The notes beneath the pieces are model-generated. The model worked only from the letters and a program-made list of their open reading frames with translations, was not told where the DNA came from and did no database searches. Of a stretch of DNA of 64,000 nt, positions 8,763-52,300 are shown piece by piece; within the stretch, counting starts at the first letter, position 1, and the number at the start of each line of letters is the position of its first letter. This stretch comes from Naegleria gruberi (Eukaryota). A program made the position numbers and the translations under genes. The stretch is taken from the NCBI GenBank assembly GCA_000004985.1, contig GG738865.1. The stretch is one strand, 5' to 3'.

Positions 8763-10556
8763 TTACATTCTAAAGACACCGAATTGAGTTGGACTTTCAA
8801 TCTTTCCATTTTCACAAGCACTCAAACTCAAACCAAGAATTCTTCTTGTGTCACGTGGATCAATGACACCATCATCCCACAATCTGGCAGATGAGAAGTA
8901 TGGGTGACCTTCATGTTCATACTTGGCTCTAATACCATTCTTGAATTCTTCCATTTCTTGTTCTGGAACTTCCTTACCTAATCTCTTCATACCTTCAACC
9001 TTAACTTGGGAAAGGACGCCAGCAGCTTGTTCACCACCCATGACAGAGATTCTAGAATTTGGCCACATGTACAAGAATCTTGGATTGTAAGCTCTACCAC
9101 ACATACCATAGTTACCAGCACCGAAACTACCACCGAGGAGGACAGTAATCTTTGGAACCTTAGCACAAGCAACAGCCATGACCATCTTGGCACCATCCTT
9201 AGCAATACCATTGGTTTCGTATTGTTTACCAACCATGAAACCAGTAATATTTTGAAGGAACAAGAGTGGAATACCTCTTTGAGAACACAATTCAACAAAG
9301 TGAGCTCCCTTTTGAGCAGATGATGAGAACAAGATACCATTGTTAGCAATAATACCAACTGGCTTACCATAAATCTTGGCAAAACCTGTCACCAATGTAG
9401 TTCCGTATAATTGTTTGAATTCATCAAATCTACTTCCATCGACAATACGAGCAATAATATCTCTGACATCGAATGGTTTTCTACCATCACGTGGAATGAT
9501 ACCTAAAATTTCATCTGGATTATATTTTGGTTCTTCAAAAGATGTTGGAACTTCATTTCTATTACTATTATTCTTTCCCAAAAAGTCAGTCTTTTTCATA
9601 TTGAGATTTGAAATAATTCTTCTTGTCAAATAAATAGCTTCAGTTTCATCATTGGCATAGTAATCAGTGACACCACTTTGTCTACAGTGAACATCAGCAC
9701 CACCCAATTCTTCATCAGTAACTTCTTCACCAGTAGCAGCCTTAACTAATGGTGGACCACCCAAATAAATAGTACCATTACCCTTTACAATAATACTTTC
9801 ATCAGCCATTGCAGGAACATAGGCACCACCTGCAGTACATTTACCCATAACTACAGCAATTTGTGGAATACCTTGAGCACTCATATTGGCTTGATTGTAG
9901 AAAATTCTACCAAAGTGAAGTTTGTCAGGGAAAACATCAGCTTGATGTTCCAAGTTGGCACCACCACTGTCAGCAATGTAAATACATGGCAAGTTATTTT
10001 GTTCAGCAATTTCTTGGGCTCTCAAATGTTTCTTTACAGTGATTGGATAATATGTACCTCCTTTAACAGTTGCATCGTTAGCAACAATTACACACAATTG
10101 ATCGTGAATTTTACCAATACCTGTAATAATACCACCAGCAGGTACTTCATCCTTTCCGTACAATTCATAACCAGCCAATTGACTGAATTCGAGGAAAGGA
10201 GATCCATCATCCAACATTCTATTAATACGATCTCTAACCAAGAGCTTGTTTCTTGAAGTGTGCATCTTTCTATACTTTTCTCCACCTCCCAACTTGATCT
10301 TTTCAACCAAATTCTTCAAATCATTAACTCCTTGAATATTGTGAGTATAATTTGCCTTGTATTCGGCATCATGATGAATATTATTTTCAAGAATATTATG
10401 AGTATTTTCAGCACTTGTAATACTATGATAAAATCTATTATTATTTGATGAAGATCCAGCAGCTAATTGTTTGGCCAAAGAACCACCAACCAAACCAGAA
10501 CGTTGTTGTTGGTTGAGAAGAATGCTAGAAATTTTCTTGGTTGAATTTTTAAGCAT
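8763..10556 (-). CDS. MCCC2: Methylcrotonoyl-CoA carboxylase beta subunit (carboxyltransferase), mitochondrial.
   Basis: 597-aa single-exon ORF. Conserved MCCC2 blocks are present from memory of the human sequence: [60 protein letters not shown] and [23 protein letters not shown]...[15 protein letters not shown]-terminal S/N-rich presequence. Confidence 0.85.
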
Positions 10557-13409: not shown

Positions 13410-15455
13410 ATGCCTCCACCTCCTCCTTCAACATCTTCATCATCAACACCAAGAGGAAAGGCAATGCGATCTGCTTTTCTACCACCCGAAACCCCATTAT
13501 CAACCAAAATTAGAAAACCAATCAGGGCCACTCCTTCTTCTTCAACTTCCTCATCGACCAATGGCACTAAGCTACAAGAACAAGAACAGCTACAAGACCA
13601 ATGTATTAAAGTGTACATTAGAATTCGTCCGAACGATGATCATGACCAATTACAAATTGAATTTCTCAACAATTCTTCAATTCAAGTCACGTGTAAAAAT
13701 CAAGAAAAGGCAGATACACCAAAAGTATTCCTATTTGATCAGGTTTTGGATGAAAATGTTTCTCAGCAACAAGTTTTTGATTTGATTGGTGTTCCAGTTG
13801 TTGAAGAACTTCTTCAGGGGTTCAATGCTTCCATTTTAGGTTATGGACATACAGGATCTGGTAAAACATTTACAATGGGAACTAATCTTCATGAGATTGC
13901 AGATTCCTTTGAGAGTGGCAATTTGCCTGCTGCTTGTGGTTTATTGCCACGAATTGTTGAAAGGTTGCTAAACAGGAAGAAAGTGGACGAACAATTAAGC
14001 TGCTCCTTATTTGAAATTTATAATGGAGGAGTTTATGATTTATTTGGAGAGGCCAGCAAAAAGTGTAAGGTCAAGTATTCAAACGGTGTGGATGTTGTGA
14101 CCAATGCTAAAAAGAAGCTTATTCATTCACTGTCTGATCTTTCTTCCATTTCGTCTGGTTTAAAAAGGAGACATCAAAGTGCAACTGGACAAAATCTATC
14201 CTCATCAAGATCACACTGCATCTTTAGATTGTTTATCACAACTGCAGACAATACTGAAAGATGCCTAAACATGGTTGACTTGGCTGGATCTGAACGTCAA
14301 AAAACTGCCAACATTCACGCTGATAAAATGTTACTAGATGAAGCAAATTACATTAATACTTCATTGACAGTTTTGAAAAGATGCATTGAAGCAGTCTATA
14401 ATAATCAATCCAATACTGATAAGAAGACACTAGTTCCATACAGGGAAGATAATCTTGCCTTATTGTTGCATTCAACTTTGGAAGGAAATTCAAAAACTTT
14501 CTTTATTGGAAATATTGGAACTGCAAGTGAATCGATATCAACTTTGAATTATGCACAAACGGCAAGAAAGATTAAAAAGATGACTAGCAAGTTGAGTTCA
14601 ATGTTGAAGAAGAAATCAGGAGGATTGTTTGAAGAGGAAATTGAAAAGTTAAAGAAAGAGTTGGAAGAAACTAAGGGTAAATTGGATGAGGAAAGAGATA
14701 GCAAGACCAAACATATTGAAGAACTCTCACAGAAAATTGCATTATTAGAAACTAAACAACAGGAAGCTAATGAAATTCTCAAACAATCGAATACCATTAT
14801 AGAAGAGATGCAAATCAGAGACGATTCTCTGAAAGAAATTTGCTCAGAAAAAGAAGAAATTATTTCAAATCTCTTTGAAGAATTGTCAAAAGCCAGAAAA
14901 GAAAGCGAGCTCTTGGAGAAGGACAATTCAACATTGAAGAGTGAAAATTCAATTCTTTTGGAAGCAATTGAAAATCAATGTGAAATCATTAGACAACGAG
15001 ATAAGGAACATGATTCAGCTTTCCAAAATTTGAAAGAGCAACTAGACGAATATCAAAAACAGTCATCCTCAAAGACTCTTACAATTCAAACTCTGCGAGA
15101 TGAATTGAAAAAAAAGGACAAAATCATACAGAGAAAATCTTCAACTACTGCAGAACAACTTTATCAGACCATTGAAAATTTACTTAAAACAATTGAAGAT
15201 CAAAAGAAGACAATTCACATGTTTTTGAATGGAACGATGGAAGTTGTGGATATTGATAAGGAAGAAGCTCATGATGGTAATTCATGTGATAGTGATGATG
15301 ATGATGAGAAGGTGATGTCTGATTCTCCAGTTGTGAAATCAAACAAACGAAAGGTAATTTCTCCACTCCAAAATATTGTCTATGAATCAACAGATGAAAA
15401 TAATGAACCAGAATGTAAATATTCAAAATCTGATTTATTAGAATATTTAAAATAA
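13410..15455 (+). CDS. Kinesin family member: N-terminal motor domain plus coiled-coil tail (681 aa).
   Basis: P-loop GYGHTGSGKTFTMGT, switch I SSRSHCIF, switch II DLAGSER. Long coiled coil after residue ~400. Overlapping ORFs 13249..13785 and 14549..14926 are out-of-frame shadows. Confidence 0.85.
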   Translation: MPPPPPSTSSSSTPRGKAMRSAFLPPETPLSTKIRKPIRATPSSSTSSSTNGTKLQEQEQLQDQCIKVYIRIRPNDDHDQLQIEFLNNSSIQVTCKNQEKADTPKVFLFDQVLDENVSQQQVFDLIGVPVVEELLQGFNASILGYGHTGSGKTFTMGTNLHEIADSFESGNLPAACGLLPRIVERLLNRKKVDEQLSCSLFEIYNGGVYDLFGEASKKCKVKYSNGVDVVTNAKKKLIHSLSDLSSISSGLKRRHQSATGQNLSSSRSHCIFRLFITTADNTERCLNMVDLAGSERQKTANIHADKMLLDEANYINTSLTVLKRCIEAVYNNQSNTDKKTLVPYREDNLALLLHSTLEGNSKTFFIGNIGTASESISTLNYAQTARKIKKMTSKLSSMLKKKSGGLFEEEIEKLKKELEETKGKLDEERDSKTKHIEELSQKIALLETKQQEANEILKQSNTIIEEMQIRDDSLKEICSEKEEIISNLFEELSKARKESELLEKDNSTLKSENSILLEAIENQCEIIRQRDKEHDSAFQNLKEQLDEYQKQSSSKTLTIQTLRDELKKKDKIIQRKSSTTAEQLYQTIENLLKTIEDQKKTIHMFLNGTMEVVDIDKEEAHDGNSCDSDDDDEKVMSDSPVVKSNKRKVISPLQNIVYESTDENNEPECKYSKSDLLEYLK

Positions 15456-15458
15456 AAA

Positions 15459-16529
15459 ATGGGAAATAGTCAACCAAGTAGAAATTTCACAAAAAATCAA
15501 TTAACAACACCAGTTTCCATTCCGATATTGTTTCTTATCGGAGATAAATCAAGTGGAAAGACGCAAACTATTCTTTCATATAACCACAGTTTCGAATTAA
15601 ACAGACGAACCCGACATTTAATTATTGAACTTTCGCGATGCATTCTTGGTTATGAAGCTCATCAAATTTCCAAGATTGACGAAAAACATTACAAAAGCAT
15701 TGCAAAAAAGTTAAAAAAAACTTGGAATTCCAAAAAGGAAAATTCTTTAAAATTCAACGCTGAAAATTTTAAAAGAAATTTAAATTATTTTGAAATTTCA
15801 ATTGAAAAACTTTTGGAAATTCTTGAAAAAATTGTAAAGGACGAATTTAGTACTGAATTGACCAATTCAGAAATTCAAATTATTGAACAAGCTCAACTAT
15901 TAATTCATCCATTTGCTTATTTCCTGGAAAATTGGTCAATTGGAACACAAACTAATCAATTAGTTGAATTATGTGCAATTCCAAGATCGAAATTATCACT
16001 TGATTCAGAAACATTTTCATGGATGAAAGAAAGAGAAAATTCTGTCGTTTTGGTTTTCATTTCATTGATTGGATGGTTGGATGAAACAGAGTATAATTTT
16101 CACAATTTTGATGAGATTGGAAAGGTGCTTGGACACGTTTCGAATAAGAAATTCGAATTTGTTTTTACAAAACCAGATCTGTTGTGGAAAATTCTGGCAA
16201 AAGGAGTGAAATATAAACATCAGGTGAAAGATACAAGAGCAGAGTTATTGGATATGGAAACTAAATACGGATTCGATCGAATAGTTAGCTCAATAATTTC
16301 AAAATACGAAACTGAACTACTGGCAGAATGCAATGATGCACAGAAACCTTTCAACTATCACATAGCAAGAACCAATTCATTGGACGAAATCTCAAAAGTG
16401 ATTGAAAGTGCCACTTCTGAATTTTCTCAATTTATTTCACCATTTATTATTCGAAAGACTTTATTCCAACCAGCACATTCCAATCAATTATTCTATTCAG
16501 ATCTATTAATATTGTGCATCTACCCTTAA
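15459..16529 (+). CDS. Divergent G-protein alpha-subunit-like protein with degenerate GTPase motifs (356 aa).
   Basis: Starts MGNSQ... with a Gα-type P-loop [14 protein letters not shown] (compare LLLLGAGESGKSTI) and a ~115-aa helical insertion. Later blocks parallel Gα: WSIGTQ for DVGGQ, [14 protein letters not shown] for [28 protein letters not shown] for [42 protein letters not shown] for [22 protein letters not shown]. The switch I Arg/Thr, NKxD and TCAT motifs are not conserved. Confidence 0.5.
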   Translation: [356 protein letters not shown]

Positions 16530-16883
16530 TAATCCTTTAAATACAGTGAAAAATTGATTATTTTTAACAGAAACTTTCCGTAATGAAATATAACAGTTGA
16601 CATTTCCATAACTCGTGTCAAGTTTCTATCCAATTCTATCTTCATATTACATGATGAAGAAGGTAGAGTAAGCAACTGCCAAACATCAAAATTTGGCCAG
16701 CTCTATACACCAAACAAACATCTTGAAAGTTTTGCAAGTTTAAATTTCAGATCTTGGAAAAAAACGTTGCAACTTTCCATAAACAGTTTCTATTGCCAGA
16801 ACTGTAAAGAAAAAACCAAACTAATCTTCATAGCGCTCAAATTAAACTTTTAGCTTATTAGAAGACACAAAAAAATAAACACA

Positions 16884-19162
16884 ATGAAGTGGTTCTCTAC
16901 TACACATGTGTTTTGTTTGTTGTTGATTTTGTTGGTAGTGGTAGAAAGTGAGTTGACAATTCTGTCAAGCGAAGATTTGGCATTTGACAGTTCCAGGAGT
17001 AATCAGAGTGTTATTGAAAGGAAATTATTATCAATTGACGAAAATATAAAGAGAATCAATATTTCTAACACAAATTTCCTTCAAAATTTAGCAAATGACA
17101 ATTGGCAGGTAATCGCATCAACTCAATCACTAGTAATTGTTAGTTTACAGAATTTAACAACCATTGATGATGTTCTTCTACTCGCATCACGTAAACTAAT
17201 TAAAATTGGTGTACACACTATTATTGGAATAGACATTAGGTTTGTGGAGACGAAACTTCAACTAAACTCGACGAAACACTTCTACAAGACTGAGAGAATG
17301 GACAGAACATCTTCTGATTGTTGGATGGGAAATGTTTTCGAATATTTCGATGTTGTAATTTCAAGTGATTTGTTTCTTCCAATTCTCATAAGACAAAATC
17401 GAGATTGTTATGTCACAACCCCAGTGTTTAGAACATTAGATTATCAAGATTTGAGTTTAGTTTCATTTTCTCCCTTTGAAATAGTAATAGCAAACTCAAA
17501 AGCATCATTTAATGATCTTGTCACCTATCAATATGAAATAATGAACGACATGTTCAAAAATTTACAAATTTCACAACAAGTTTGTGAATCAACGACAAGT
17601 TCATACAAGGAACATGATTATTCAGTGTTGAGAATTGAACAATTTTTCACAAATATTTCAGCGGATGATTTTTTATTTATTGTGGAATATCATGCGTTGG
17701 ATAATTGGACACTAAATCAAACATTTACTAATTTGGCATTTGAAATGGTGTTAAATAGAACTGGATATAGTGTTGATAAGCTCAATTCTATGAAAAGATC
17801 ATTCTTTCCCACAAAATGTTACTCCTGTCTAACGTCATCTTGTATGTGGGAAGACAGAGCTAGTCCAGTAGCTTCAAATGCAGATGGTGTCAGTATTGGA
17901 GGTGGTATCTCTCTATTCATTGCATTATTTTTCTATTTTCCTTCTTTAATTCTATTCAGAAACAGAGAATCGGTCAAGATTCGTCTCATTGTTCCATACG
18001 TTTCGGTTCTGAGTCCAGTTTTCATCATGTTGATTCAGATTTTTCAACTTATCAAGCCGTGTTATTTGCTCTATCAGATTGCTGTTAATTTTCTATCCTG
18101 TTGGTCGATTATCATTTATTTTTTGATTTGTATTCGATTCGTCTTGTTGAGAAATATTTATACGCTAGTTCTGTATCTTAATGAGAGACATATCAAGATT
18201 TTAAAATGGTTAGTGAGTAAGAGAGTTGCAAGTATTGGATCCTTTCTGATGGGTGTGTTGATTGGATGTTTAGTTTCCCTCGTTCCCCTTGTTGGATTTT
18301 ATGATGTAAGTTGTTATTCGAATCCCAAACTAAACATCTTCTTTGAAAATAGGAATTCTTTGGAAATCGTGCTGCCATACAATGTGCTTTCATCACCTTT
18401 GGAATCACTGTAGCCATTGCAACATTATCATTACTAGCACTTGTCATTCATTTCCTCTTCAAGATTCCAATAATTTGGAGAAGAGGTCTATTATATATTC
18501 TATTCTTTGATGATCCATTTCAAATCAAGTTTGATATTTTATTCTTCTCACTCAATACTATAGTCATTACAGTTTATTTATTCACAGAGGCGAATCAGAA
18601 TTATGTTTACAGTATTTTTGCACCACTCCTATCTCACAATATTGGAATGTTGTATAGAGGAGGTTTAGTTTTGATTATTGAATGGTTTAAAACGATTTAT
18701 TTTAGAAAACAACTGAATATGACTGAGAAGGAGAAAGTGGACGAATTGGTTCTTCATTTGGAAAATCCAGAATTCTTCAATTTAATGAAGGAATTTGTTG
18801 CAAAGGAAACTTCACTTGAGAACTTGAAATTTTACGAAGAATTGAAACAAATAGAAAGAATGAGTCAATCTGACAAGAATCCCAAAATCAGTCACGAAGA
18901 AATGATTCGAATAAGGGACAAGTACTTTAAAGAAAATGTTCTATACGAATTGAATATTGGAGGCCAAACTAAGCAATCGTTTCACAATCTCGTAGCAACA
19001 GCTGCAAATCCAAATGAAGAAGTTCGCCTTAAAGATTTGAAATTCATTCTCGATGAAGAATTGATGGGAAATTTGAGTGATGCCTATTTGAGATTGAAAC
19101 AACAACCAGGTTTTAAGAGATGGAAAGTAGCTCACAATATTTATATTGAGGAAAAGGAATAG
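16884..19162 (+). CDS. Seven-transmembrane receptor-like protein with a C-terminal RGS domain (7TM-RGS). Exons 16884..18305 and 18353..19162.
   Basis: Signal peptide and ~300-aa N-glycosylation-rich ectodomain, then seven hydrophobic helices. A 47-nt intron (GTAAGT at 18306, AG at 18351-18352) joins ORF 16884..18413 in frame to ORF 18647..19162. The C-terminus carries RGS-domain signatures (FFNLMKEFVAKETSLENLKFYEELKQIE...IRDKYF, compare EFSEENLEFW). Confidence 0.65.
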
Positions 19163-19448
19163 TTTGGGAGTTTTGGAAAAATTTGTACTTTTCTCTATCC
19201 CAAGATTGAGTTTTGATTCTTGAATTCATCTTGGTTCCTTGAAAATCAGTGAAATTACTTTTCGTTCCATTTATTGGAGGAATTCTCTGAATAGTTCACT
19301 CTCGTATTAGGAAAAGCAAACTCATTCCTTTATGAGAGCTCTATGGAACGTTGAAAACCTCATAATCAGTTTGAGAATCCATTAATGTGAAATTTTAGAA
19401 AATATTCTTTACTATTATGGTTAAAGAAATATAGTTCTGGATAATCTT

Positions 19449-21133
19449 TTATTCGTCAGCAATTGCTTTCATATTTTTAATTTCTTCCTCGTGTTTCTCT
19501 CTCAATTCCTTCTTATTGAGCGATTTCTTAAGAATTGCCAAGAATAAGAAAGCTGGAATTAACCAAATAAATAAAACTAAAAGTAAGGTTTGAGGAAGTT
19601 TGAGTTTGGACAAGATACTATAAACACCACTGGTCACAGAAATTCCCAAATAGGTAAATGTTGAAAAGAAACCCATAAATTCACACTTCTTTTCCAATGG
19701 AATTAATTTGCTCATTAATCCACGAGCTACACTAGCATTCCATGCATATAAAAATCCAACAACCAGAAATTGAGCCAAAACAATGTACTTTTCCACTTTC
19801 ATTGAAATTGTAATAAATACTGAATTGAAGAAGAATTAGAAAATTCTCATTCAATTTGATTTGAAAACTTACTCGAAAGTGTTAAAACTCCAAAAAGTGA
19901 ATTTTGACCTGCCAAAACATAAATGTCATGAACCTTGAATAATTTCTCAAAAATTACACCTCCAATCACACCACCAACCATGGCAATCTTGAAATACAAG
20001 TTCAATAACACCTCCTGTTCAAGTCCAAAATTATAAATATCAATAAAAAGAGGTCCCAAATAAATTGTCACAACAGTACCAGCTGTGGAGAAGAATAAAT
20101 AGGAAAAGAGGAAAATCCAACAGTGATAGTATTGCTCATTCCTTCTCCAATGGATGAAGGTCTCAGCAAGTGATTTTAAAGATTTGGCAACCACTGCATA
20201 GACCTTTCCCAATCCTCTCAAATATTTTGGTAATTTGGAGAAACATTCAGGAATTTGCAAAGTTTGTGCTGTTTTGGCAGAAATTGGCTCTGGATTCAGA
20301 GTGACCTTATCTACACCATTTGGACTCAGAATGACAAACAGAGAGACCAGAATGGTGAGACTTGTGAAAACGAGAACCCACCAATTTTCTCTCGAAATAT
20401 CCCAAACTCCTCCCGAAAAAACACTCGAAGGTACAAAGGCCAATACCAATAATCCAACAAGATTGACACCAAATCCAATGAAATTACCCAACAAACTCAA
20501 AATCATCATATTCTTCTTATCAAAACAAGGTAAGAGAGCATTATTATTCATTACTGAAAATCTCAAAAAGAACATGGCCAATATATACACAATTTCACAA
20601 ATAGCCAAATGAGAAGTATAATCCTGTGGTGATTCATGTGGTAATTTATCAGTGAAAAACAATCCAATTGTTGCCAAAATACCCAAATACATTGTCACCA
20701 TCATTGAACTCCTAATTAATTTCAAATTATCAACCAAAGATCCCAAAATTGGCAATGTCAATGCACTTGCCAATGTTGTCACTGTATTAATAATTGAAAA
20801 TGCAGTAGAATACTCAGCTCCACTACCAGAAGCAACATTATGTAAAATCTTTGGATACAGAGCTGAATAGACAATTGTGTTCAACACATTAAAAACAATA
20901 CTAAACGATAACCATCCAATTGAACTTTTCACAACATGAAACAGTATCTGTGTTCTACTACTATGACCCATTCTATTCATTCCATTCTTAGCATCATCAT
21001 GTTCTGCATCATCATCATTCATCATTAATTGTTTTGATTCTTCATTATCAACAAATGATTGATCATGATGATCTATTGATTGAAAACGAGCATGATGATC
21101 ATATTCATCACCTCCATCTCCTCTTTGTATCAT
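19449..21133 (-). CDS. Major-facilitator-type multi-pass transporter (~545 aa). complement(19449..19819, 19873..21133).
   Basis: About 12 hydrophobic helices across two minus-strand ORFs. A 53-nt intron (GTAAGT..TTCAG, phase 1) joins them (...VLTLS-I-FITISMKVEKY...). Acidic/His-rich N-terminal tail. Subfamily not determined. Confidence 0.6.
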
Positions 21134-21704
21134 TTCTTGTTCTTCTGTTCTGTTGTTGTTGATGATGATGTTGAAGAAGAAATGATGATGCAGAATTATT
21201 GTGATGATGAGGATGAGGATGATGATTATTGGAGAGTGATGATAGATCGGAGGGTGCCTTGACGAGTGGTGTAAATTTACTTGGCATTAATTCTTCTCTT
21301 TTTCACAACAAGTGTATGTAGTACTATTAATTATTAAATGTTTGAATATATTGAATATATTGAATTCCTCCGATGAAAATATTTGGATGAGGATGTTGGT
21401 GAGTGATGTGAAGAATCTTTTTTTCAAAGGGTTTTTTGAAAGTTGAGAAGGAGCGGTTTGGCAATGGATGTGTGAAAAGATATTTTGTAAAGATTGGTTC
21501 AGTATGTGATGATGGTAAATTGTATTGAGGCAAAGGGCAAAACGTTGAAGACATTGTTAGTGATATTGAAAAGGGGACTGTTTGATATTTAACAGAAATG
21601 GATTTTCACAAAAGAAATAGTTAAAAATAATCTCAAAGTTGAACTAGAGTCTAGAAATTCTGAAGAAGAGAGAAAGGATATCTTTTATTGACATGCATTA
21701 ATGA

Positions 21705-22073
21705 TCACTTGTTGGATTGATAGATTGAGGAGAGGCTCTCAATTATATCTTTACTCTTTGCAAGTTTTTCTTTTCCAAATTCAATCAAATAACCAATAGA
21801 TCTTATCTGATTCAAGAGCAGCAAAATACAACTCATAGATATGATTGCATATAAATTATTGAAACTACAATAAATCAAAGCAATAAAGTTCAGTAAAGTG
21901 TATATTAACATGCCTAGAGGATCTCTTGTTGCCATTGAATAAAACCCACATAAAACTGCCAACAAAAGCAAAATACGTATGAGTGAAAAACTATAGTTAA
22001 GGGGAGGAGAAAATCTGGAAAAACAAGATAAGATCACCAAAAATCCAATTAGCACCAATTGAAAGGAGAACAT
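21705..22073 (-). CDS. Possible small multi-TM protein (122 aa), weak.
   Basis: ATG ORF with 3-4 hydrophobic helices. No homology recognised. Confidence 0.25.
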   Translation of the reverse strand: MFSFQLVLIGFLVILSCFSRFSPPLNYSFSLIRILLLLAVLCGFYSMATRDPLGMLIYTLLNFIALIYCSFNNLYAIISMSCILLLLNQIRSIGYLIEFGKEKLAKSKDIIESLSSIYQSNK

Positions 22074-22297
22074 GTTTCCTAATTTCGAAAATCGGTACTG
22101 ATTTGGAAAGAGGCAATCAGTGGTTCAATATGTTTGGCAAACATGTCGTAAAGTGGTGTCGTGTTGCTTTCAGAGTTGAGCAAGATTGGTTCTGTATGTC
22201 GAGACATTTTTTAAGTTGCTTTCAACCAACTAGAATAATACGCATGCACCTTCTCTGATTGGTCCAAATACGAACTTTACAAAAAATGAATACGTAT

Positions 22298-23746
22298 CTA
22301 TATTGTCTTGATGGTGAGTTTGATGATAGGGAATGTTTGGGTGTTGAGGATATGCAAGAGCGCATCATTGTCGAATCTAACCAGTTTAAAAATTAAATCA
22401 TCCCAGTAGTGAAATGTACAAAATTGGTAGTGAGGAAGTTGTGGAAATTTGGAGCGAATTTTTGAGATTATTGTTGAGAAGTTAGATTCTTGTAGAGTGT
22501 TAGAAATGAGAACTGTTTCGTCTTGGAAAGTGGCATAAACCACAACCCTTCTATCAATAGATTGATTACTACCACTACTTGCGATTCTTGTCTGAATATT
22601 TAACTGTTCCATTGTCGGCGTGCTTGTAGAAAGAAATATCTCTTCATAATCTTTTAAAGTCCTAGATGGGATTGGAAGAGCTGTTGAGGGTGTGAAATAC
22701 GAAGTGTTTGCATTCTGAACTTCATTCTCTAAGGTGGTGACAATAGTTTCATGACGTTCATAAAAGATTGGTTTGATCGTAGAAACATCAACTGGTGCAT
22801 TACGCTTAATATCAGTTTCATTCGACAGTGGTGTTTTAGCATTTTTCTCTTCTTCTATTTTATGAATCTCTGAAGCAGTACGGTTTTTGAACAGTCTTTG
22901 ATTATTTGGCAGTTCCTTATTAATTTTTTCTTTTGAAATGGGTGTCTTTTTTGGAGAGGAGGTTTCTTGTTTCCTCTTTTTTCTGTGCTTTTTCAAAGGG
23001 CCAACAATCTGTCCAGCCAACCGTGGATCGTTGGAGGTAGCTGACCTTGTCAATTTAATTGGTGCACTACTTCTTGTTCTCCTAGTATTTGAATTTGGAT
23101 GTGAGGAATTTGACTCATCATTGTATTCACTATCAGATTCAGAATTAGAGTATAATGAAGAAGACGATGATGAATCTGACTCACTCTCTGAAGATTCATT
23201 CAATACTACCTTTGGTTTTCTTCCTCGTTTAGCCTTCACCTTCCCAATATCACTGGTTGACTCTTGTGAGAAATCAAAACTATGTTGTTTGGCTATTGCT
23301 TTGGCAACCTCCACAACTTGTGGTGTCAATTTGGCATAGAATTCTTCAATTTTCTTCAAATAATCCTTTTTAAATGCTTCCTTCTCCTCTTCAGAACCAC
23401 TAACTGATTGAAGGCTTTTTTTAATAATTGTAGTAATTTCTCTTCTAGCCTTTATCACATCTGCATTATCCTCGATCTTATTAGATATAGAACGCCACAA
23501 ATTAGAAATAAATGAATTATTCTCTAGAAGAAAGGGGGCTGGCAATCCCGAAAGGAATTTGAATAGTTTGACATATTTGCACTCACCACTCGAATGGTGG
23601 GTAAATATACAGTGAGGACATCTCATGGCAAATTTTGAGTCGTCAATTGCCCCTTTCTCTGAACTCTTTTCATTCTTCTTTTCAACAAATAAAACAGGCT
23701 GTTCCTCAGGCTGCACTTGCTTGTTCATATCGGAAATCTGCTCCAT
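22298..23746 (-). CDS. Hypothetical Ser/Lys-rich (probably nuclear) protein with an N-terminal CxxC...HxxxC cluster (482 aa).
   Basis: Long ORF. RCPHCIFTHHSSGEC zinc-binding-like motif. SESESDSSSSSS acidic serine tract. KKHRKKRK NLS-like run. Confidence 0.5.
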   Translation of the reverse strand: MEQISDMNKQVQPEEQPVLFVEKKNEKSSEKGAIDDSKFAMRCPHCIFTHHSSGECKYVKLFKFLSGLPAPFLLENNSFISNLWRSISNKIEDNADVIKARREITTIIKKSLQSVSGSEEEKEAFKKDYLKKIEEFYAKLTPQVVEVAKAIAKQHSFDFSQESTSDIGKVKAKRGRKPKVVLNESSESESDSSSSSSLYSNSESDSEYNDESNSSHPNSNTRRTRSSAPIKLTRSATSNDPRLAGQIVGPLKKHRKKRKQETSSPKKTPISKEKINKELPNNQRLFKNRTASEIHKIEEEKNAKTPLSNETDIKRNAPVDVSTIKPIFYERHETIVTTLENEVQNANTSYFTPSTALPIPSRTLKDYEEIFLSTSTPTMEQLNIQTRIASSGSNQSIDRRVVVYATFQDETVLISNTLQESNFSTIISKIRSKFPQLPHYQFCTFHYWDDLIFKLVRFDNDALLHILNTQTFPIIKLTIKTI

Positions 23747-23833
23747 TCTTCTTTAAACAGATTCTGTAAAATCAATTTATATTTAATAATTTAATAAATT
23801 AAAAAAGGGGTAGAAATTAATAATGGGTTGATG

Positions 23834-23930
23834 GGTTGTCACTGATAAAAAGCCTTGTTCATCAGTGTTTGCTATTATTTTTTTAAAACAAGGCTTGATT
23901 GATTTGGGGATTTGTCTTTTTAGTGACAAC
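23834..23930. repeat. Imperfect long-range inverted repeat / hairpin-forming element in the intergenic spacer.
   Basis: GTTGTCACT...GCCTTGTT (23836-23859) is mirrored by AACAAGGC...AGTGACAAC (23887-23930). A nested short palindrome CACTGAT(23841-47)/ATCAGTG(23861-67) is present. Confidence 0.4.
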
Positions 23931-23994
23931 TCTAGCCGCACAGAAGTAATGAAGCTTTCAATGAAAATGGTCTTTATTTGTACAATGTGGTATT

Positions 23995-25434
23995 TTACAA
24001 CATTTTTATAATTACATCAATATACAATGTGTTATCTACAAGGAATCCACTCTGGGGGTCATTTAATCTTTCTAGAGCGAGTAATTGTTGCCTACCTAAA
24101 CTGGCACTATCTTTTTGAAAGTGTTCATTGAAACATTCGTGTTCTACTGATAGATTTTGCATGTCTTTCTGGTTGACCACTCTGAGGGTAAAGTCACAAT
24201 AGGCACTCGATTGATTATTATTCTCAATGACCAGACTCAAAAATACACTTATATGAGTATTGAATGAATCTCCCAAAGGATAGAGAACTACTTTCCATGT
24301 ATGTCCACCAATTTGAATTAATGGAGAGCTAACATGTTTCTTACTAATTTTAGAATAGTTTGGAATTCTCCAACGATAGTGGGCATGAGCATTTTGTTTG
24401 AATACTTGAACTACATAAATTCCCTTTCTATTTGGATTAATTCTTCCTTCATCTCCTCTCAATACTGCTCTCCTATTCTTGACAAAACTTGTTTCATTGG
24501 TACTATAATATTTGTAAGCCTCAAAAAGTAATTCGTGAGGAACAATATCCAAAGGTTCCACAGAATTCAATAAATATTCAGGTTTAATGAGTGGGAATCT
24601 GATAAAGTCGACTACATTCTTAATGATATCTCTCACAGATAATGTAGAATCTTTTCGGTCAATCCTGATCATACCCCAAGAAACTACCTTTTCTATTTCA
24701 AATTGTTAACAATTAATGATTATAAAGAACTTACCAAATAAATATTCTTCCTTTAAATTTAAATAATCCGATTGAAGAACTTCAATTAATGAATCCTCAG
24801 AAAGTAGAGTGAGGAAAGTATCATTTTCAAAACATTCATCCACATGATCTAATGCCACACTGTAAATAATTATTACTAAATATAATAAAATTACCTTCAA
24901 TAAATCTCAAACATAATTTCTTTAAAAGAGGTAATTCAAGCTCTCCTGCTGCATCAATCAGAGGTACAACATTTGCAGCTGAAATTTGTACTTTTCCACA
25001 ATAAATAAATCTCAAAACTTCCTTGAACACTATTTCCAAATTAATTTTAAAGATTAAAAACCATAAAACCCACCATTTGGAAGAACATTTGGCTTCTTGA
25101 TTGGATTTTCTTCAGAACTGTTACTCTCACGAAATCCGAGAGTGAACATGTTACGAAAATATGGACAACGAGCAGCTAGGACACATTTGTGTGCTGATAT
25201 TAATTCCTGATCATGATGTTCAGATCCAACAAGAAAGAAAACATCTCTGAAATGTTCCATCTGATATAATTGTTCAAAATCCGTACTCAATGTACTAGTA
25301 TCTTGTAAATCAGTTCCGACTAATCCAAAAATTTGATCACCATAATTTTGACTAATATTCAAATCGGAATCATCAAGATTTGGAGTCTCCACACCATTAG
25401 GTTCATCAACAGCTGATCCTAGTTGATGAACCAT
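23995..25434 (-). CDS. BTB/POZ-BACK-MATH domain protein (435 aa), MATH domain C-terminal. complement(23995..24692, 24735..24848, 24895..25029, 25074..25434).
   Basis: Four minus-strand ORFs linked by 44-, 46- and 42-nt GT..AG introns with consistent phases. BTB motifs DVFFLVGSEHHDQELISAHKCVLAARCPYFRNMF and VLRFIYCGKVQISAANVVPLIDAAGELELPLLKKLC. The C-terminal MATH/TRAF-like region contains WRIPNYSKI...IQIGGHTWKVVLYPLG...DFTLRVVNQ. Confidence 0.7.
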
Positions 25435-25680
25435 TTTTTTCTATTTAAAAATAAATTGTTTAATATTAATAAATAATATTTTAAACAATGTTGTAAAACT
25501 CCCAATCCATCGTATTCATATAATTAATGAATTTATCAATAGGATACCTGTTAAGGATGAATATTAAAAATTGTTTTTGTTAACATTTGTATGATGATCA
25601 CGTTGGCGCCAAAACCATGTACAATTCCTACATCATCTTTTTCACCTCAAAGCCTCATCATACAACAATAAAAGAAAAAA

Positions 25681-26793
25681 ATGTCTACAAAAGGTGAATC
25701 GACCCGTTTGAAACCAAAGAATGCACCTCTCATTGAGGAAATTAGTGATGATGAAGAAGAAGTCACAATTGAAGAAGAAAAACCAAAGATTTCAAAGAGA
25801 CAAGAAAAGAGGGAGAGAAAGGCTTCAAGAATGATGGATCCTGCTGCTACTGAAGACAATGATTCCGAAGAATTAAAAGCCCTCAAAAGAGAAGTTCTCA
25901 AAAAAGCATTCAGCACATTTAAAGAGACTGAGGAAAAGAAACAAACAAACAAGTCAGCAATTGCCTACAACTTTATTGTCTTTGTTTTCATTGTCTCAGT
26001 GCTATCCTTATTTATTTTTCAAGCATTTATCATGAAGATTGCACCAACAGATGTAATTACTCCAAAAGAAACTCAGGAATTATTCTCTGGCAACAGCTCA
26101 ATCAAGGCCTTTAATATTCTATTAGGTATGGCATACTCTCCTAGACTTACTCTCCTCTATTTGGCTGTCACTGATAGACAAGTTATTGTGGATCTTTTTG
26201 ACAAGTCTGGATTAGTTTTTGGAAAGGACAAGAACAGCTATCTTGATTTGAGTCTTAAGGTGATGGGGTGTGCCATCTCTCCACGTTTATTCTTCATTTT
26301 ACAGAGTGCCAACGTGTTGATTGATAGACATTATGATCTTGTTGAGAGTGGAACAGTTTTTTCTGTAATTTCAGAACAACTTCAAGACTTTGGAGGTCTC
26401 TACTCTTTGGTTACTGACTCCTTCTGGAAGAATGACAAGACATTTGAGACTCTCTTCTTTTCATTCTCAATTTTCTGTCAAGTAGTATTTTTAATCTTTG
26501 ACTTTGCTTCGAGAATTGGATTTTTCAAGAGAGGAGTTAAATTCTTAATCATGCTTCTCCTTTGGGTTGTATTGAACTCTTACTTTATCCCTCCAATGAT
26601 TTTGTCTTACATGTTCAAGATTACCTATTTCATTCAGCCTGGATTAACTTTGATCATGTACTTGACTGAAAGTTTGGAAATCAAATACGAAAAGCAATTA
26701 CTCGATTCTCAAGAAAGAGAACAAAGAGAAGCCTTCTTAAAGGATGCTCGTGAAACTTTGAAAAAGGCTCAACAATCCAAAAAGCAAGAATAA
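25681..26793 (+). CDS. Hypothetical multi-pass membrane protein with an acidic N-terminal tail (370 aa).
   Basis: SDDEEEVTIEEEK acidic cluster followed by several TM helices. No family recognised. Confidence 0.45.
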   Translation: MSTKGESTRLKPKNAPLIEEISDDEEEVTIEEEKPKISKRQEKRERKASRMMDPAATEDNDSEELKALKREVLKKAFSTFKETEEKKQTNKSAIAYNFIVFVFIVSVLSLFIFQAFIMKIAPTDVITPKETQELFSGNSSIKAFNILLGMAYSPRLTLLYLAVTDRQVIVDLFDKSGLVFGKDKNSYLDLSLKVMGCAISPRLFFILQSANVLIDRHYDLVESGTVFSVISEQLQDFGGLYSLVTDSFWKNDKTFETLFFSFSIFCQVVFLIFDFASRIGFFKRGVKFLIMLLLWVVLNSYFIPPMILSYMFKITYFIQPGLTLIMYLTESLEIKYEKQLLDSQEREQREAFLKDARETLKKAQQSKKQE

Positions 26794-49305: not shown

Positions 49306-52300
49306 ATGAGTAAAAACATATGGTTGCCGCCACTTTCGCTATCATCTCTGCAGAGAAATGATGGGAAGAACATCATGTTTGACACTCAGAAAGTAATCAA
49401 GCCGACCACCTGGTTGTATATAATGATGATACTGCTGATATTGTTAATGAATAGTGGAGGAGTTGTGAGATGTGGAAATGTTGTGGAAGTGGATGCTGAG
49501 GAAGTGAGGCAGTTGGATTTATATTTGAAAAAATCAAAACCTGATTTGGAAAATTCTCAGCTAGCTTTATTGGCATTTAAGGAGACGAGTCAAATGCTTA
49601 TACTCACCAAGACATTGTCATCCTTGTCCATCACACCAAGAACAATATTTTACTCTGCAGGGTTTATCGGAAATACTATTGTTCAATTGAATGCAAGTGA
49701 AATCAAATTCACCTCCTTGGCTAATGTATTTAACAATTCAACAAGACCATACAAAGTTGTTGATAGGCTTACATCATTATGCTCTTCTACTCTTTCTCAA
49801 TTATATCAGAACAACACCTTTATTCCAAATTATTATATTTGTTTTTTCAAAACAACACTCACATCAGAGAATAGAGTTTTCTTCTCAACAACAAGTGAAG
49901 GATTCAGATGTTTAAAACTAAATTCGGATGGGGATGTAATAACCAAGGATGTTTCTAAGGGATTTATTGAAGATTTTGCTACCTCATTATGTGTTATAAC
50001 CATAATATTTATAGCCCTTCTGTGGGTACAAGGATCATTTAAAAGGAGAATTATTGATACAAAGAGATATCCCTTTACCAATTATTACTTTGGAAACGAT
50101 ACTGATTGGAACTCTTCAACTTTTTCGGATCTTTCAGTAACTCTTAGACCAATATTTCCATTCTTTAAACATTTTTCCAATCAGTTTGACAAGCTTTATA
50201 AACTGATATTCAGATCAATTCAAAACAAAGTGGACCAGGAACATATTAGGAAGTATAAGAAATTTGGCTCTTCAACACTGCTGAAATACCAATTATTCTT
50301 CGACTTTTTCCTCTTTATAGTTATTAGTTGCTTATCAATGGTGCAGTTATTTGTTCCTTCTGTACTATATTTCCCAAATTTTATTCAAATACCTATTAAT
50401 TTTGACCTTGGGAATGACGAAACCTTCACAAGTTATTGGATAGGAGGGGCTGATTTTGTACCTATCAGTTTGGGTTTTTGGTTAATATCCCTCACTTTGA
50501 TGATATTGGGAATAATTTTGTTAATAGTTACTTCTAGTTCAAAAGAAAAGATGATGTATTGGAGCACAAACTCTTTGCCAGACACCAACATTTTGGTTTT
50601 CACTGATGCAATCTTCAAAATTATTTTCATAGTCTTGATTAATGTGATAATCATTTTACTACCGTTCTGGACATTTACCATTAAGGGAGTTCTTATGGTG
50701 GTTATTACAATAGCATCTATTTTCTATGGGAGTCAACAAATTTTAATTCCAACAGAGAAGGTTATTCACGCTATTCATGATGGAAATTATAAGATGGTTG
50801 TTGCCTTCTTGATGTTTGCATATTTTAAGGAACTTCTAGTGATCATACCATTTTTTATTCAGATATTCATGGTGGCCGAAACTATATTTGGGCTAGTTTG
50901 GAGCTTGATTCTTTCCTTTGTTGCAAACAACAGCAAGCTTTCCTTGATTGGTATTTTTGGTATTGTAATTAATTCTGCAACAAGTTTACTTCAAGACTTA
51001 CTACAGCCATCCAGAGTTACCAGGAAAAAGATTGTGGAAAGGTCAGATACATTCGTTTTTCCCTCTCTAACAAAGACCAGCACACAATTCATCCTTGATA
51101 ATGTCGCTGCAAAATATGGTGGCATTATTAATACCTACTCTAAACTGGTAGAAAGTAATGAGATGGTGGATTATACATACAAGGATATTCTCTCATTAAA
51201 TGACAACTTGGAAGAACTTAAGGACATTACAAGAAAAAGAAGTCAGTCTGTTGGAAAATCTGAAAACGGTGAAGCTAAGCTAGCAGCAACAACTATTGAA
51301 AAAATTCACAACCCTGTTAACATCAAATTCGAAAAAAATGAAGACAAAAACGAAGAGGAGCTAAAAACAAGATATACGGAGATCAATGATAGGCCAAAGT
51401 ACATGCATGTTCTCTTCAAGAAAGAAATTGCCTTACTCGTTAGAGGCATCTTCCTTTCAACGCAAGAGAAGAAAAATGAAAAATTGAGAGTAATCTTTAA
51501 GAGAGGAGAGAGGCTTTATACTCCATTGTTGAATACAGACATCAGAAGAATCCATCACAATTTAGTGGGTAGAGTCAAGATAGCAACAGGAAATCTGAGT
51601 AATTATTTAGTAGTAATTTTGATTGCAATGATTATTTTCTTGTCTTTTACTTATTCTGGTGCTGAAAGTGATGGTATGGACATTATGTCAAATATGGCTA
51701 TTGTTATTTCAATCTTTATTCCACAACTTTTTGGAAGATTGGATGAAGGACAAGTTGATGAACTATTCGAAAGAAGAATTGAGGAAACTATCCTTTTAAC
51801 CAAGAGAGATCTTGCAAAGAAACTTGACTTACCAGAGAAGGATCTCAATTTTTGCATTTTCAATTTTCAAAACGATTCAGATATTAGTAACTTTTTAGAG
51901 CACAACACCCCAGCAGTGTCTGAAACTATTGGAAGAAAAATGTAAGTATATTTTAACGAATTGTTTTACTTGAATCAAATGAAAGATTGGAACATTGGGA
52001 AAGTGCTTCAACAAATGGATTTATTACAGCTCAAAAATTCAAGCCACTCATGCTTATTGTATGGGATGAAACCCTTAAAATCAATGCAAAGAAGGGCACT
52101 GCTTCCGCTACAAATGACTATCTCAAGACTCATAGCCAATTCTTGACATCATTTTCAAACATAATTTATTGTATTAGTAATTTTGAGGCTGACTCCTTTG
52201 TGAGTGCTTACGAATTCATTCACGCTGTGGAGCTTCTCAAAAAATCAATCACAAGAAAGGAAGAAGATCAATGCTCAGATATGGATATAACATTTGCATT

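Follow-up and report, generated by a model that had tools for sequence, protein, structure and literature searches.

In plants, AtRGS1 joins an N-out seven-transmembrane (7TM) bundle to a cytosolic regulator of G protein signalling (RGS) domain, and serves as a GTPase-activating protein (GAP) receptor for a self-activating G-alpha subunit. Proteins of the 7TM-RGS type have been reported for many bikonts as well as for some opisthokonts, and the count of RGS proteins in Naegleria gruberi stands at 229 (de Mendoza et al. 2014, PMC3971589). In the lethal species Naegleria fowleri (Nf), 28 7TM RGS proteins have been reported and proposed as drug targets (Bosch, Jeck & Siderovski, J Biol Chem 2022, PMC9283941). 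When isolated, the RGS domains of Nf 7TM RGS2, 3 and 4 speed the hydrolysis of GTP by Nf G-alpha 2, 3, 5 and 7, and they bind G-alpha in its transition-state form; among these subunits, Nf G-alpha 5 and 7 activate themselves, and the ectodomains of the proteins studied contain EGF, lectin and GPS modules (PMC9283941). The present analysis deals with a further member of this receptor type, already described in the genus, which is encoded at 16884..19162 (+) in a stretch of 64,000 nucleotides of contig GG738865.1 of N. gruberi strain NEG-M (assembly GCA_000004985.1); the whole of this stretch is referred to as the window. The gene has two exons, and its 743-amino-acid (aa) product comprises, from N- to C-terminus, a predicted signal peptide, an ectodomain of ~310 aa, seven transmembrane (TM) helices and an RGS domain. 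This fused architecture, with the RGS domain in the cytosol, had been put forward from the sequence alone in an earlier reading of the window (the original prediction), and it was upheld in every test made.

The nearest described relatives of the window protein belong to a heterolobosean (Naegleria/Willaertia) family, of which it is a member as judged from sequence comparison. Four RGS domain-containing proteins of N. fowleri and Naegleria lovaniensis, including P0001 and P0004 of N. fowleri, match it at E values of 1e-121 to 1e-132, the alignments covering 89-95% of its length. A second word-indexed search, with a profile of 44 aligned sequences, returned the same five proteins as the first. 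The breadth of the family is drawn from an exhaustive profile search over 1.84 billion representatives of 50%-identity clusters (E<=1e-3) together with ten name look-ups. The search gave 330 clusters, most of which cover the 7TM and RGS module while their N-termini differ; the ectodomain is also aligned in ~33 of the best 150 clusters. Members looked up by name come from N. gruberi (e.g. D2VQQ5), N. lovaniensis, N. fowleri and Willaertia magna, and are labelled only as 'RGS domain-containing' or 'hypothetical'. The motifs PSIKRRLxxPY, RxxYLRNLY, FLFFDDPF and KEFSLEN recur throughout the family. The Nf 7TM RGS proteins, from the same genus, are likewise built of a 7TM bundle with an RGS box C-terminal to it; the four studied in detail (Nf 7TM RGS1-4) are 1215-2459 aa long, whereas the window protein has 743 aa and a flytrap-like ectodomain of a kind absent from that report (PMC9283941).

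The gene model rests on the joining of two open reading frames (ORFs), 16884..18413 (509 aa) and 18647..19162 (171 aa), both of which were found on the plus strand of the AT-rich window (~33% G+C). The original prediction had connected them through a 47-nt intron at 18306..18352, a proposal that comparative evidence upholds. The intron (+ strand) runs from GTAAGT to TAG in phase 0, and its removal leaves a coding sequence of 2232 nt, that is 743 codons and a stop. Exon 1 (16884..18305, +; aa 1-474) opens with the ATG of the upstream ORF, is colinear with the Naegleria homologs and encodes the signal peptide, the ectodomain and TM1-TM4, and exon 2 (18353..19162, +; aa 475-743 and the stop), whose frame starts right behind the intron-terminal TAG and is in frame with exon 1 once spliced, encodes TM5-TM7 and the RGS domain.

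No gap opens at the junction when the four homologs from N. fowleri and N. lovaniensis are aligned (GFYD|EFFG in the window protein, AYREEYFG in the homologs). The gene for P0001, the closest N. fowleri homolog (L002 8001..10493, VFQX01000007.1), is a single uninterrupted, intronless ORF of 830 codons, and in a tblastx comparison the end of exon 1 falls at L002 position 9704 and the start of exon 2 at 9711, adjacent and one codon apart. The genes flanking this N. fowleri locus bear no relation to the neighbours of the 7TM-RGS gene in the window, with no synteny beyond the gene itself, and the 35%-identical proteins may be paralogs rather than positional orthologs.

A second line of evidence comes from an environmental Naegleria strain represented by a metagenome contig (ENA ERZ929261, k127_318132; here L001), which was aligned to window positions 17035..19663 and is 98% identical to strain NEG-M at the 7TM-RGS locus. 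Only two indels lie within the gene, a 4-nt deletion in the intron (18339-18342) and an in-frame 3-nt insertion in exon 1. There are 33 exonic substitutions, 20 synonymous and 13 non-synonymous, exon 1 carrying 11 and 10 and exon 2 carrying 9 and 3, respectively. Two of the synonymous changes fall inside 18353..18646, a segment outside both ATG-initiated ORFs that codes for TM5-TM7 and for LYxLFFDDPF, a motif found throughout the family; the codons of this motif precede the first ATG in the 171-aa ORF.

The locus could also be read as two separate genes or as a decaying pseudogene, with the 47-nt segment being a chance GT..AG pair. Such a reading finds some ground in the fact that neither the spliced product nor either ORF has an exact entry in a public collection of 15 billion proteins, and that prokaryote-style gene calling on the environmental contig cut the gene into products of 490 and 171 aa. 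It is opposed by the gapless alignment of the homologs over the junction and the single ORF in N. fowleri, by the restriction of the 4-nt indel to the intron while the exonic indel measures 3 nt, and by the excess of synonymous changes in both exons, including the segment devoid of an ATG-initiated ORF; moreover, the product of an ORF that terminates at 18413 would reach no further than TM4. Because of the homolog alignment, the N. fowleri ORF, the strain comparison and the coding content of 18353..18646, both the two-gene and the pseudogene readings are considered very unlikely. Homology and strain comparison likewise speak against the separate transcripts that had been named as the alternative to the original prediction, and there is strong comparative evidence for one two-exon gene that would place the 7TM and RGS parts on one polypeptide. 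No second copy of the gene was found in the 64-kb window.

The seven helices of the original prediction were borne out by hydropathy, the distribution of positive charges and an AlphaFold2 model built on the 44-sequence family alignment. The model is confident (pLDDT 85, pTM 0.80) and displays seven long helices followed by a helical C-terminal domain. The helices span residues 335-357, 370-386, 394-423, 446-465, 480-510, 532-555 and 558-590. The first part of the 7TM domain (TM1-TM4, aa 335-474, containing R418) is encoded at 17886..18305 (+), and the second (TM5-TM7, aa 475-590, containing the FFDDPF motif with D528/P529, and G577) at 18353..18700 (+). Counts of K and R in the loops are 3, 7, 3 and 4 inside and 0, 1, 1 and 0 outside, giving an N-out, C-in topology with which the hydropathy profile is likewise compatible. 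The 7TM part has the fold of a G protein-coupled receptor (GPCR), on which a Foldseek search with the full model agrees. At the sequence level, no Pfam GPCR family matched the window protein or any of its 44 relatives; for 7tm_3 (PF00003), the family of class C receptors, nothing was obtained at E<=1 for the window protein or at E<=0.01 for the 44 family members. The 7TM core is modelled as closest to class C GPCRs by a small margin of only ~1.5-2 Z units. Within the 7TM domain, only R418 (TM3, cytoplasmic end), D528 (TM6, start) and G577 (TM7) are invariant in the 44 members, and the placement of R418 and D528 would fit a TM3-TM6 microswitch.

The cytosolic RGS domain (aa 599-742; 18725..19156, +) scores as an RGS domain, as the original prediction had held: the Pfam match (PF00615; aa 610-693, 18758..19009) reaches 31.7 bits with an E value of 2.2e-7 against a curated cutoff of 23.9 bits. 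The two motifs quoted in that prediction were located at aa 628-638 (SLENLKFYEEL) and aa 659-664 (IRDKYF). A profile of the family covers the full RGS box of the structures of RGS10, RGS17, RGS18, RGS2, RGS7 and RGS4 (best E 1.7e-9), and places the family consensus kEfSlEN / yEvN / DTfsRL opposite KEFSEEN / SQVN / DSYSRF of RGS10. The aligned positions correspond to S85, E87, N88, N128, D163 and R167 of RGS4, which we take to be the residues contacting the switch regions of G-alpha in the RGS4-Gi-alpha1 complex. At these positions the window protein retains S628, E630, N631, N675, D717 and R721, and E630, N675, N714 and R721 are invariant in the 44 aligned relatives.

GAP activity of this domain toward G-alpha is suggested by the conservation of these residues and by the experiments on N. 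fowleri. The domain could instead be catalytically dead and act as a scaffold only, as in GRKs or Axin. GAP activity has been lost in some RGS domains (PMC3971589), the Pfam match reaches just profile positions 6-83 of 117, and T627 and A718 of the window protein depart from the family consensus, which has F and T, respectively. Still, the residues aligned with the G-alpha-contact positions are retained and invariant family-wide, the profile alignment takes in the entire RGS box, and GAP activity has been demonstrated for related 7TM-RGS domains of Naegleria (PMC9283941), so that a scaffold devoid of catalysis appears improbable.

Ahead of the 7TM bundle lie the predicted signal peptide and the large ectodomain. 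The signal peptide (aa 1-22, MKWFSTTHVFCLLLILLVVVES; 16884..16949, +) is predicted from a hydrophobic N-terminus with a hydropathy peak of 2.6 and V-E-S ahead of the likely cut site, and the homolog P0005 has a comparable hydrophobic N-terminus. The ~310 aa between this peptide and TM1 agree with the large ectodomain of the original prediction, and the predicted glycosylation is evident as 8 N-X-S/T sequons within aa 23-335, in addition to conserved cysteines. The conserved motifs of the region are GVHTIIG, ERMDRxxxDCWMGNVFEYFD, RQNRDC and HDY. A juxtamembrane cysteine motif, CYSCLTSSC (aa 312-320; 17817..17843, +), forms part of a putative stalk ahead of TM1 (aa 311-332), which is modelled at low confidence (pLDDT <65). 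C315 and C320 are invariant in 17 aligned ectodomains, and C312, C315 and C320 in the close subfamily. A GPS/GAIN site, as in other Nf 7TM RGS proteins, was considered for this stretch and rejected, since there is no Pfam match and CYSCxTSxC does not conform to the GPS consensus.

Comparison of the ectodomain sequence of the window protein with Pfam and PDB yielded only noise and no family match. The ectodomain model (~aa 44-310; 17013..17813, +), however, matches solved structures of the type II periplasmic-binding-protein (PBP) class, with a bilobed alpha/beta fold. The top structural matches are bacterial amino-acid binders (7.8-7.6) and the ligand-binding domain of plant GLR3.4 (7.5), followed by the sensor flytraps of BvgS and EvgS, PhnD, SsuA and thiamine-precursor binders; with the full-length model, Foldseek finds PhnD at a probability of 0.93. 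In addition, the paralog P0026 clears the Pfam NMT1/THI5 family of PBPs (22.3 bits against a cutoff of 20.5), and its match aligns with aa ~78-158 of the window protein, containing IKIGVHTIIG and FEYFDVVIS. The structural scores are modest and predicted structures underlie them; the ectodomain is, on this evidence, a probable though not certain type II PBP or Venus-flytrap (VFT) module. Its best structural matches thus lie among type II PBPs and eukaryotic VFTs (PfVFT1, the ligand-binding domains of iGluR and GLR proteins, BvgS/EvgS, PhnD, SsuA and NMT1/THI5), to which it is alike at the level of fold only, and from which it differs by an added helical C-terminal region (aa ~210-310) and by its conserved cysteines.

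R170, R173, D189 and D245 are invariant or nearly so among divergent ectodomains and may be candidate cleft residues, in line with binding of a small ligand, which the likeness to PBPs suggests. The same modest scores leave room for an ectodomain that has a PBP-like layout and functions as a structural, adhesive or dimerisation module, in which case the receptor would sense contact or a protein, or would be constitutive; set beside the match of the paralog to a PBP family and the conserved candidate cleft residues, this alternative is considered the less probable one, though not to be dismissed lightly. No description of a flytrap-type ectodomain on a 7TM-RGS protein was found in a full-text search, which excludes Anantharaman et al. 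2011 and Bradford et al. 2013, and the PBP-II fold predicted for the ectodomain, together with the class-C-like 7TM domain, would be what is new here.

The original prediction had described the protein as AtRGS1-like. In the order of its domains this holds, as in both proteins an N-out 7TM bundle precedes a cytosolic RGS domain, and their RGS boxes are homologous; as a statement of nearest relationship it does not, since the closest described relatives are the Naegleria 7TM-RGS proteins and the 7TM parts are unrelated by the comparison made. Plant RGS1 proteins were retrieved and 20 of them aligned for profile-profile comparison with the Naegleria family. With hhalign, only the RGS box was aligned (88% probability, E 3.1e-6, 84 columns), whereas the 7TM regions taken alone gave probabilities of 0.05-0.2% and E values of 0.36-0.76, with no detectable relation. 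Because the profiles align in the RGS boxes but not in the 7TM regions, the resemblance to AtRGS1 lies in architecture and probably in signalling logic, and provides no demonstration that the receptor parts descend from a common ancestor. Plant RGS1 proteins are ~460 aa long, with hydrophobic segments from about residue 10-15, and have neither a signal peptide nor an ectodomain, whereas the window protein carries ~310 aa ahead of TM1. They are also encoded by one gene per genome, in contrast to the large expansion in Naegleria. Several of them carry precomputed, weak Pfam 7tm_3 matches, which leaves open a very remote class-C-like origin shared by the 7TM domains of plant RGS1 and Naegleria.

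The class C GPCRs used for comparison were mGlu, GABA-B, TAS1R and GPR156, along with the GPR158-RGS7-Gbeta5 complex. The flytrap of class C receptors is a type I PBP (ANF_receptor), unlike the ectodomain of the window protein, which resembles a type II PBP. The class C hallmark of an ANF_receptor flytrap with a nine-cysteine cysteine-rich domain is not matched by the window protein, in which neither ANF_receptor nor NCD3G is found by Pfam and the linker holds just three conserved cysteines. The RGS domain, too, is fused in cis in the window protein, while it is recruited in trans in GPR158-RGS7-Gbeta5. OpuAC is a family of type II PBPs. As some 7tm_3 receptors outside the metazoa carry an OpuAC ectodomain (PMC3971589), the pairing of a PBP-II module with a 7TM domain is not unprecedented.

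It is tentatively suggested, as a possibility short of even odds, that the gene and ~30 or more 50%-identity clusters represent a heterolobosean subfamily of class-C-like receptor-GAPs, hitherto undescribed, in which a flytrap nutrient sensor, a cysteine stalk and a 7TM bundle would lead to the output of a fused RGS domain. If the 7TM domain and plant RGS1 are both remote members of class C, the 7TM-RGS proteins and class C would share an ancient flytrap-plus-7TM ancestor, and the animal GPR158-RGS7 pair would then be a split version of the same device.

For the function of the protein, the explanation preferred here, with a confidence somewhat above even, is that the N. gruberi gene encodes a heterolobosean 7TM-RGS receptor working as a ligand-regulated receptor-GAP. 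The receptor would span the plasma membrane with the N-terminus on the outer side, where the bilobed flytrap-like ectodomain would capture a small extracellular ligand and close. The change may be passed through the membrane by the cysteine-containing stalk and the bundle of GPCR fold closest to class C, with the invariant R418 (TM3) and D528 (TM6) pair possibly acting as a relay at the cytoplasmic face. The RGS domain would act as a GAP on the G-alpha subunits of Naegleria, among them subunits that take up GTP by themselves, and the ligand could alter the access of the tethered RGS domain to G-alpha-GTP through rearrangement of the 7TM bundle and the cytoplasmic loops; alternatively, the receptor may be removed from the membrane, as in AtRGS1. 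The ligand would in this way set the lifetime of G-alpha-GTP, and the signal would be a regulated switch-off and not a receptor-catalysed switch-on. Ligand-regulated deactivation, as proposed in the original prediction, is a reasonable inference, and ligand binding and the coupling of the ligand to GAP output, in direction and mode, are suggested by the analogy of fold.

Several observations weigh against this explanation. T627 and A718 of the RGS domain differ from the family consensus, as mentioned above, the preference of the 7TM fold for class C is slight, and a 7tm_3 match is missing in every family member. Further, the four N. fowleri proteins studied are much longer and differ in their ectodomains, which points to other branches of the family.

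The protein might, on the other hand, be a true activating GPCR, that is, a guanine nucleotide exchange factor (GEF) for slow-exchanging G-alpha subunits, with the RGS domain serving as a terminator, a kinetic sharpener or a docking site for G-alpha. The GPCR fold and the possible microswitch residues would suit such a receptor; against it stand the absence of a Pfam GPCR family match noted above, the literature examined, in which no GEF activity is reported for any 7TM-RGS protein, and the plant paradigm, which runs without GEF activity. Exchange activity is for these reasons regarded as unlikely, and the receptor-GAP is retained as the preferred explanation.

Receptor-GAPs reverse the textbook logic of GPCRs, and the Naegleria set is among the largest. 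The window protein is short and tractable and belongs to a non-pathogenic model species. Its flytrap-like ectodomain would offer a concrete route to the first ligand of a protist 7TM-RGS receptor, and the protein would allow the effect of a ligand on GAP output, up or down, to be examined.

In the public protein set of N. gruberi NEG-M, the gene appears to be either absent or wrongly modelled. Exact look-ups of ORFs of the window in a gene-position index gave no entry, and homolog and profile searches with the gene model matched no N. gruberi protein, while four neighbouring ORFs are identical to NEG-M GenBank/RefSeq proteins (e.g. XP_002677792 and XP_002677692). The GenBank numbering has room for one plus-strand gene between the kinesin (EFC44949) and EFC44951, i.e. 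from 15455 to 25681; therefore, either the 7TM-RGS gene or the ORF at 15459..16529 is unannotated. If the 7TM-RGS gene is the one missing from the reference set, surveys using that set undercount the family.

The ORF 15459..16529 (+; 356 aa) is separated from the downstream start codon of the 7TM-RGS gene by 354 nt and shares its frame with the kinesin ORF 13410..15455, from which it is separated by only TAA and one codon. Its product begins with MGNSQ, a myristoylation-like start, contains a Walker-A-like GDKSSGKT at aa 27-34, and has no exact entry in the public protein collection. By-eye colinearity of motifs had raised a divergent G-alpha as a candidate, which was rejected as Pfam and phmmer against PDB were without a match; BLASTP against an approximate Gi-alpha1 sequence gave an E value of 0.89 over the P-loop only. 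On the other side of the 7TM-RGS gene, a membrane-transporter-like gene at 19449..21133 (-) is split into the ORFs 19847..21133 and 19449..19802, the latter with a sub-threshold Pfam MFS_1 match (26.4 bits against a cutoff of 33.4), and a short intron around 19803..19846 is likely. The 3' end of this gene converges on the 7TM-RGS gene across a spacer of ~290 nt. Farther away, the ORF 49306..51945 (+; 879 aa) has an N-terminal signal or anchor, ~8-9 more hydrophobic segments and no Pfam match, and its product is an uncharacterised multi-pass membrane protein.

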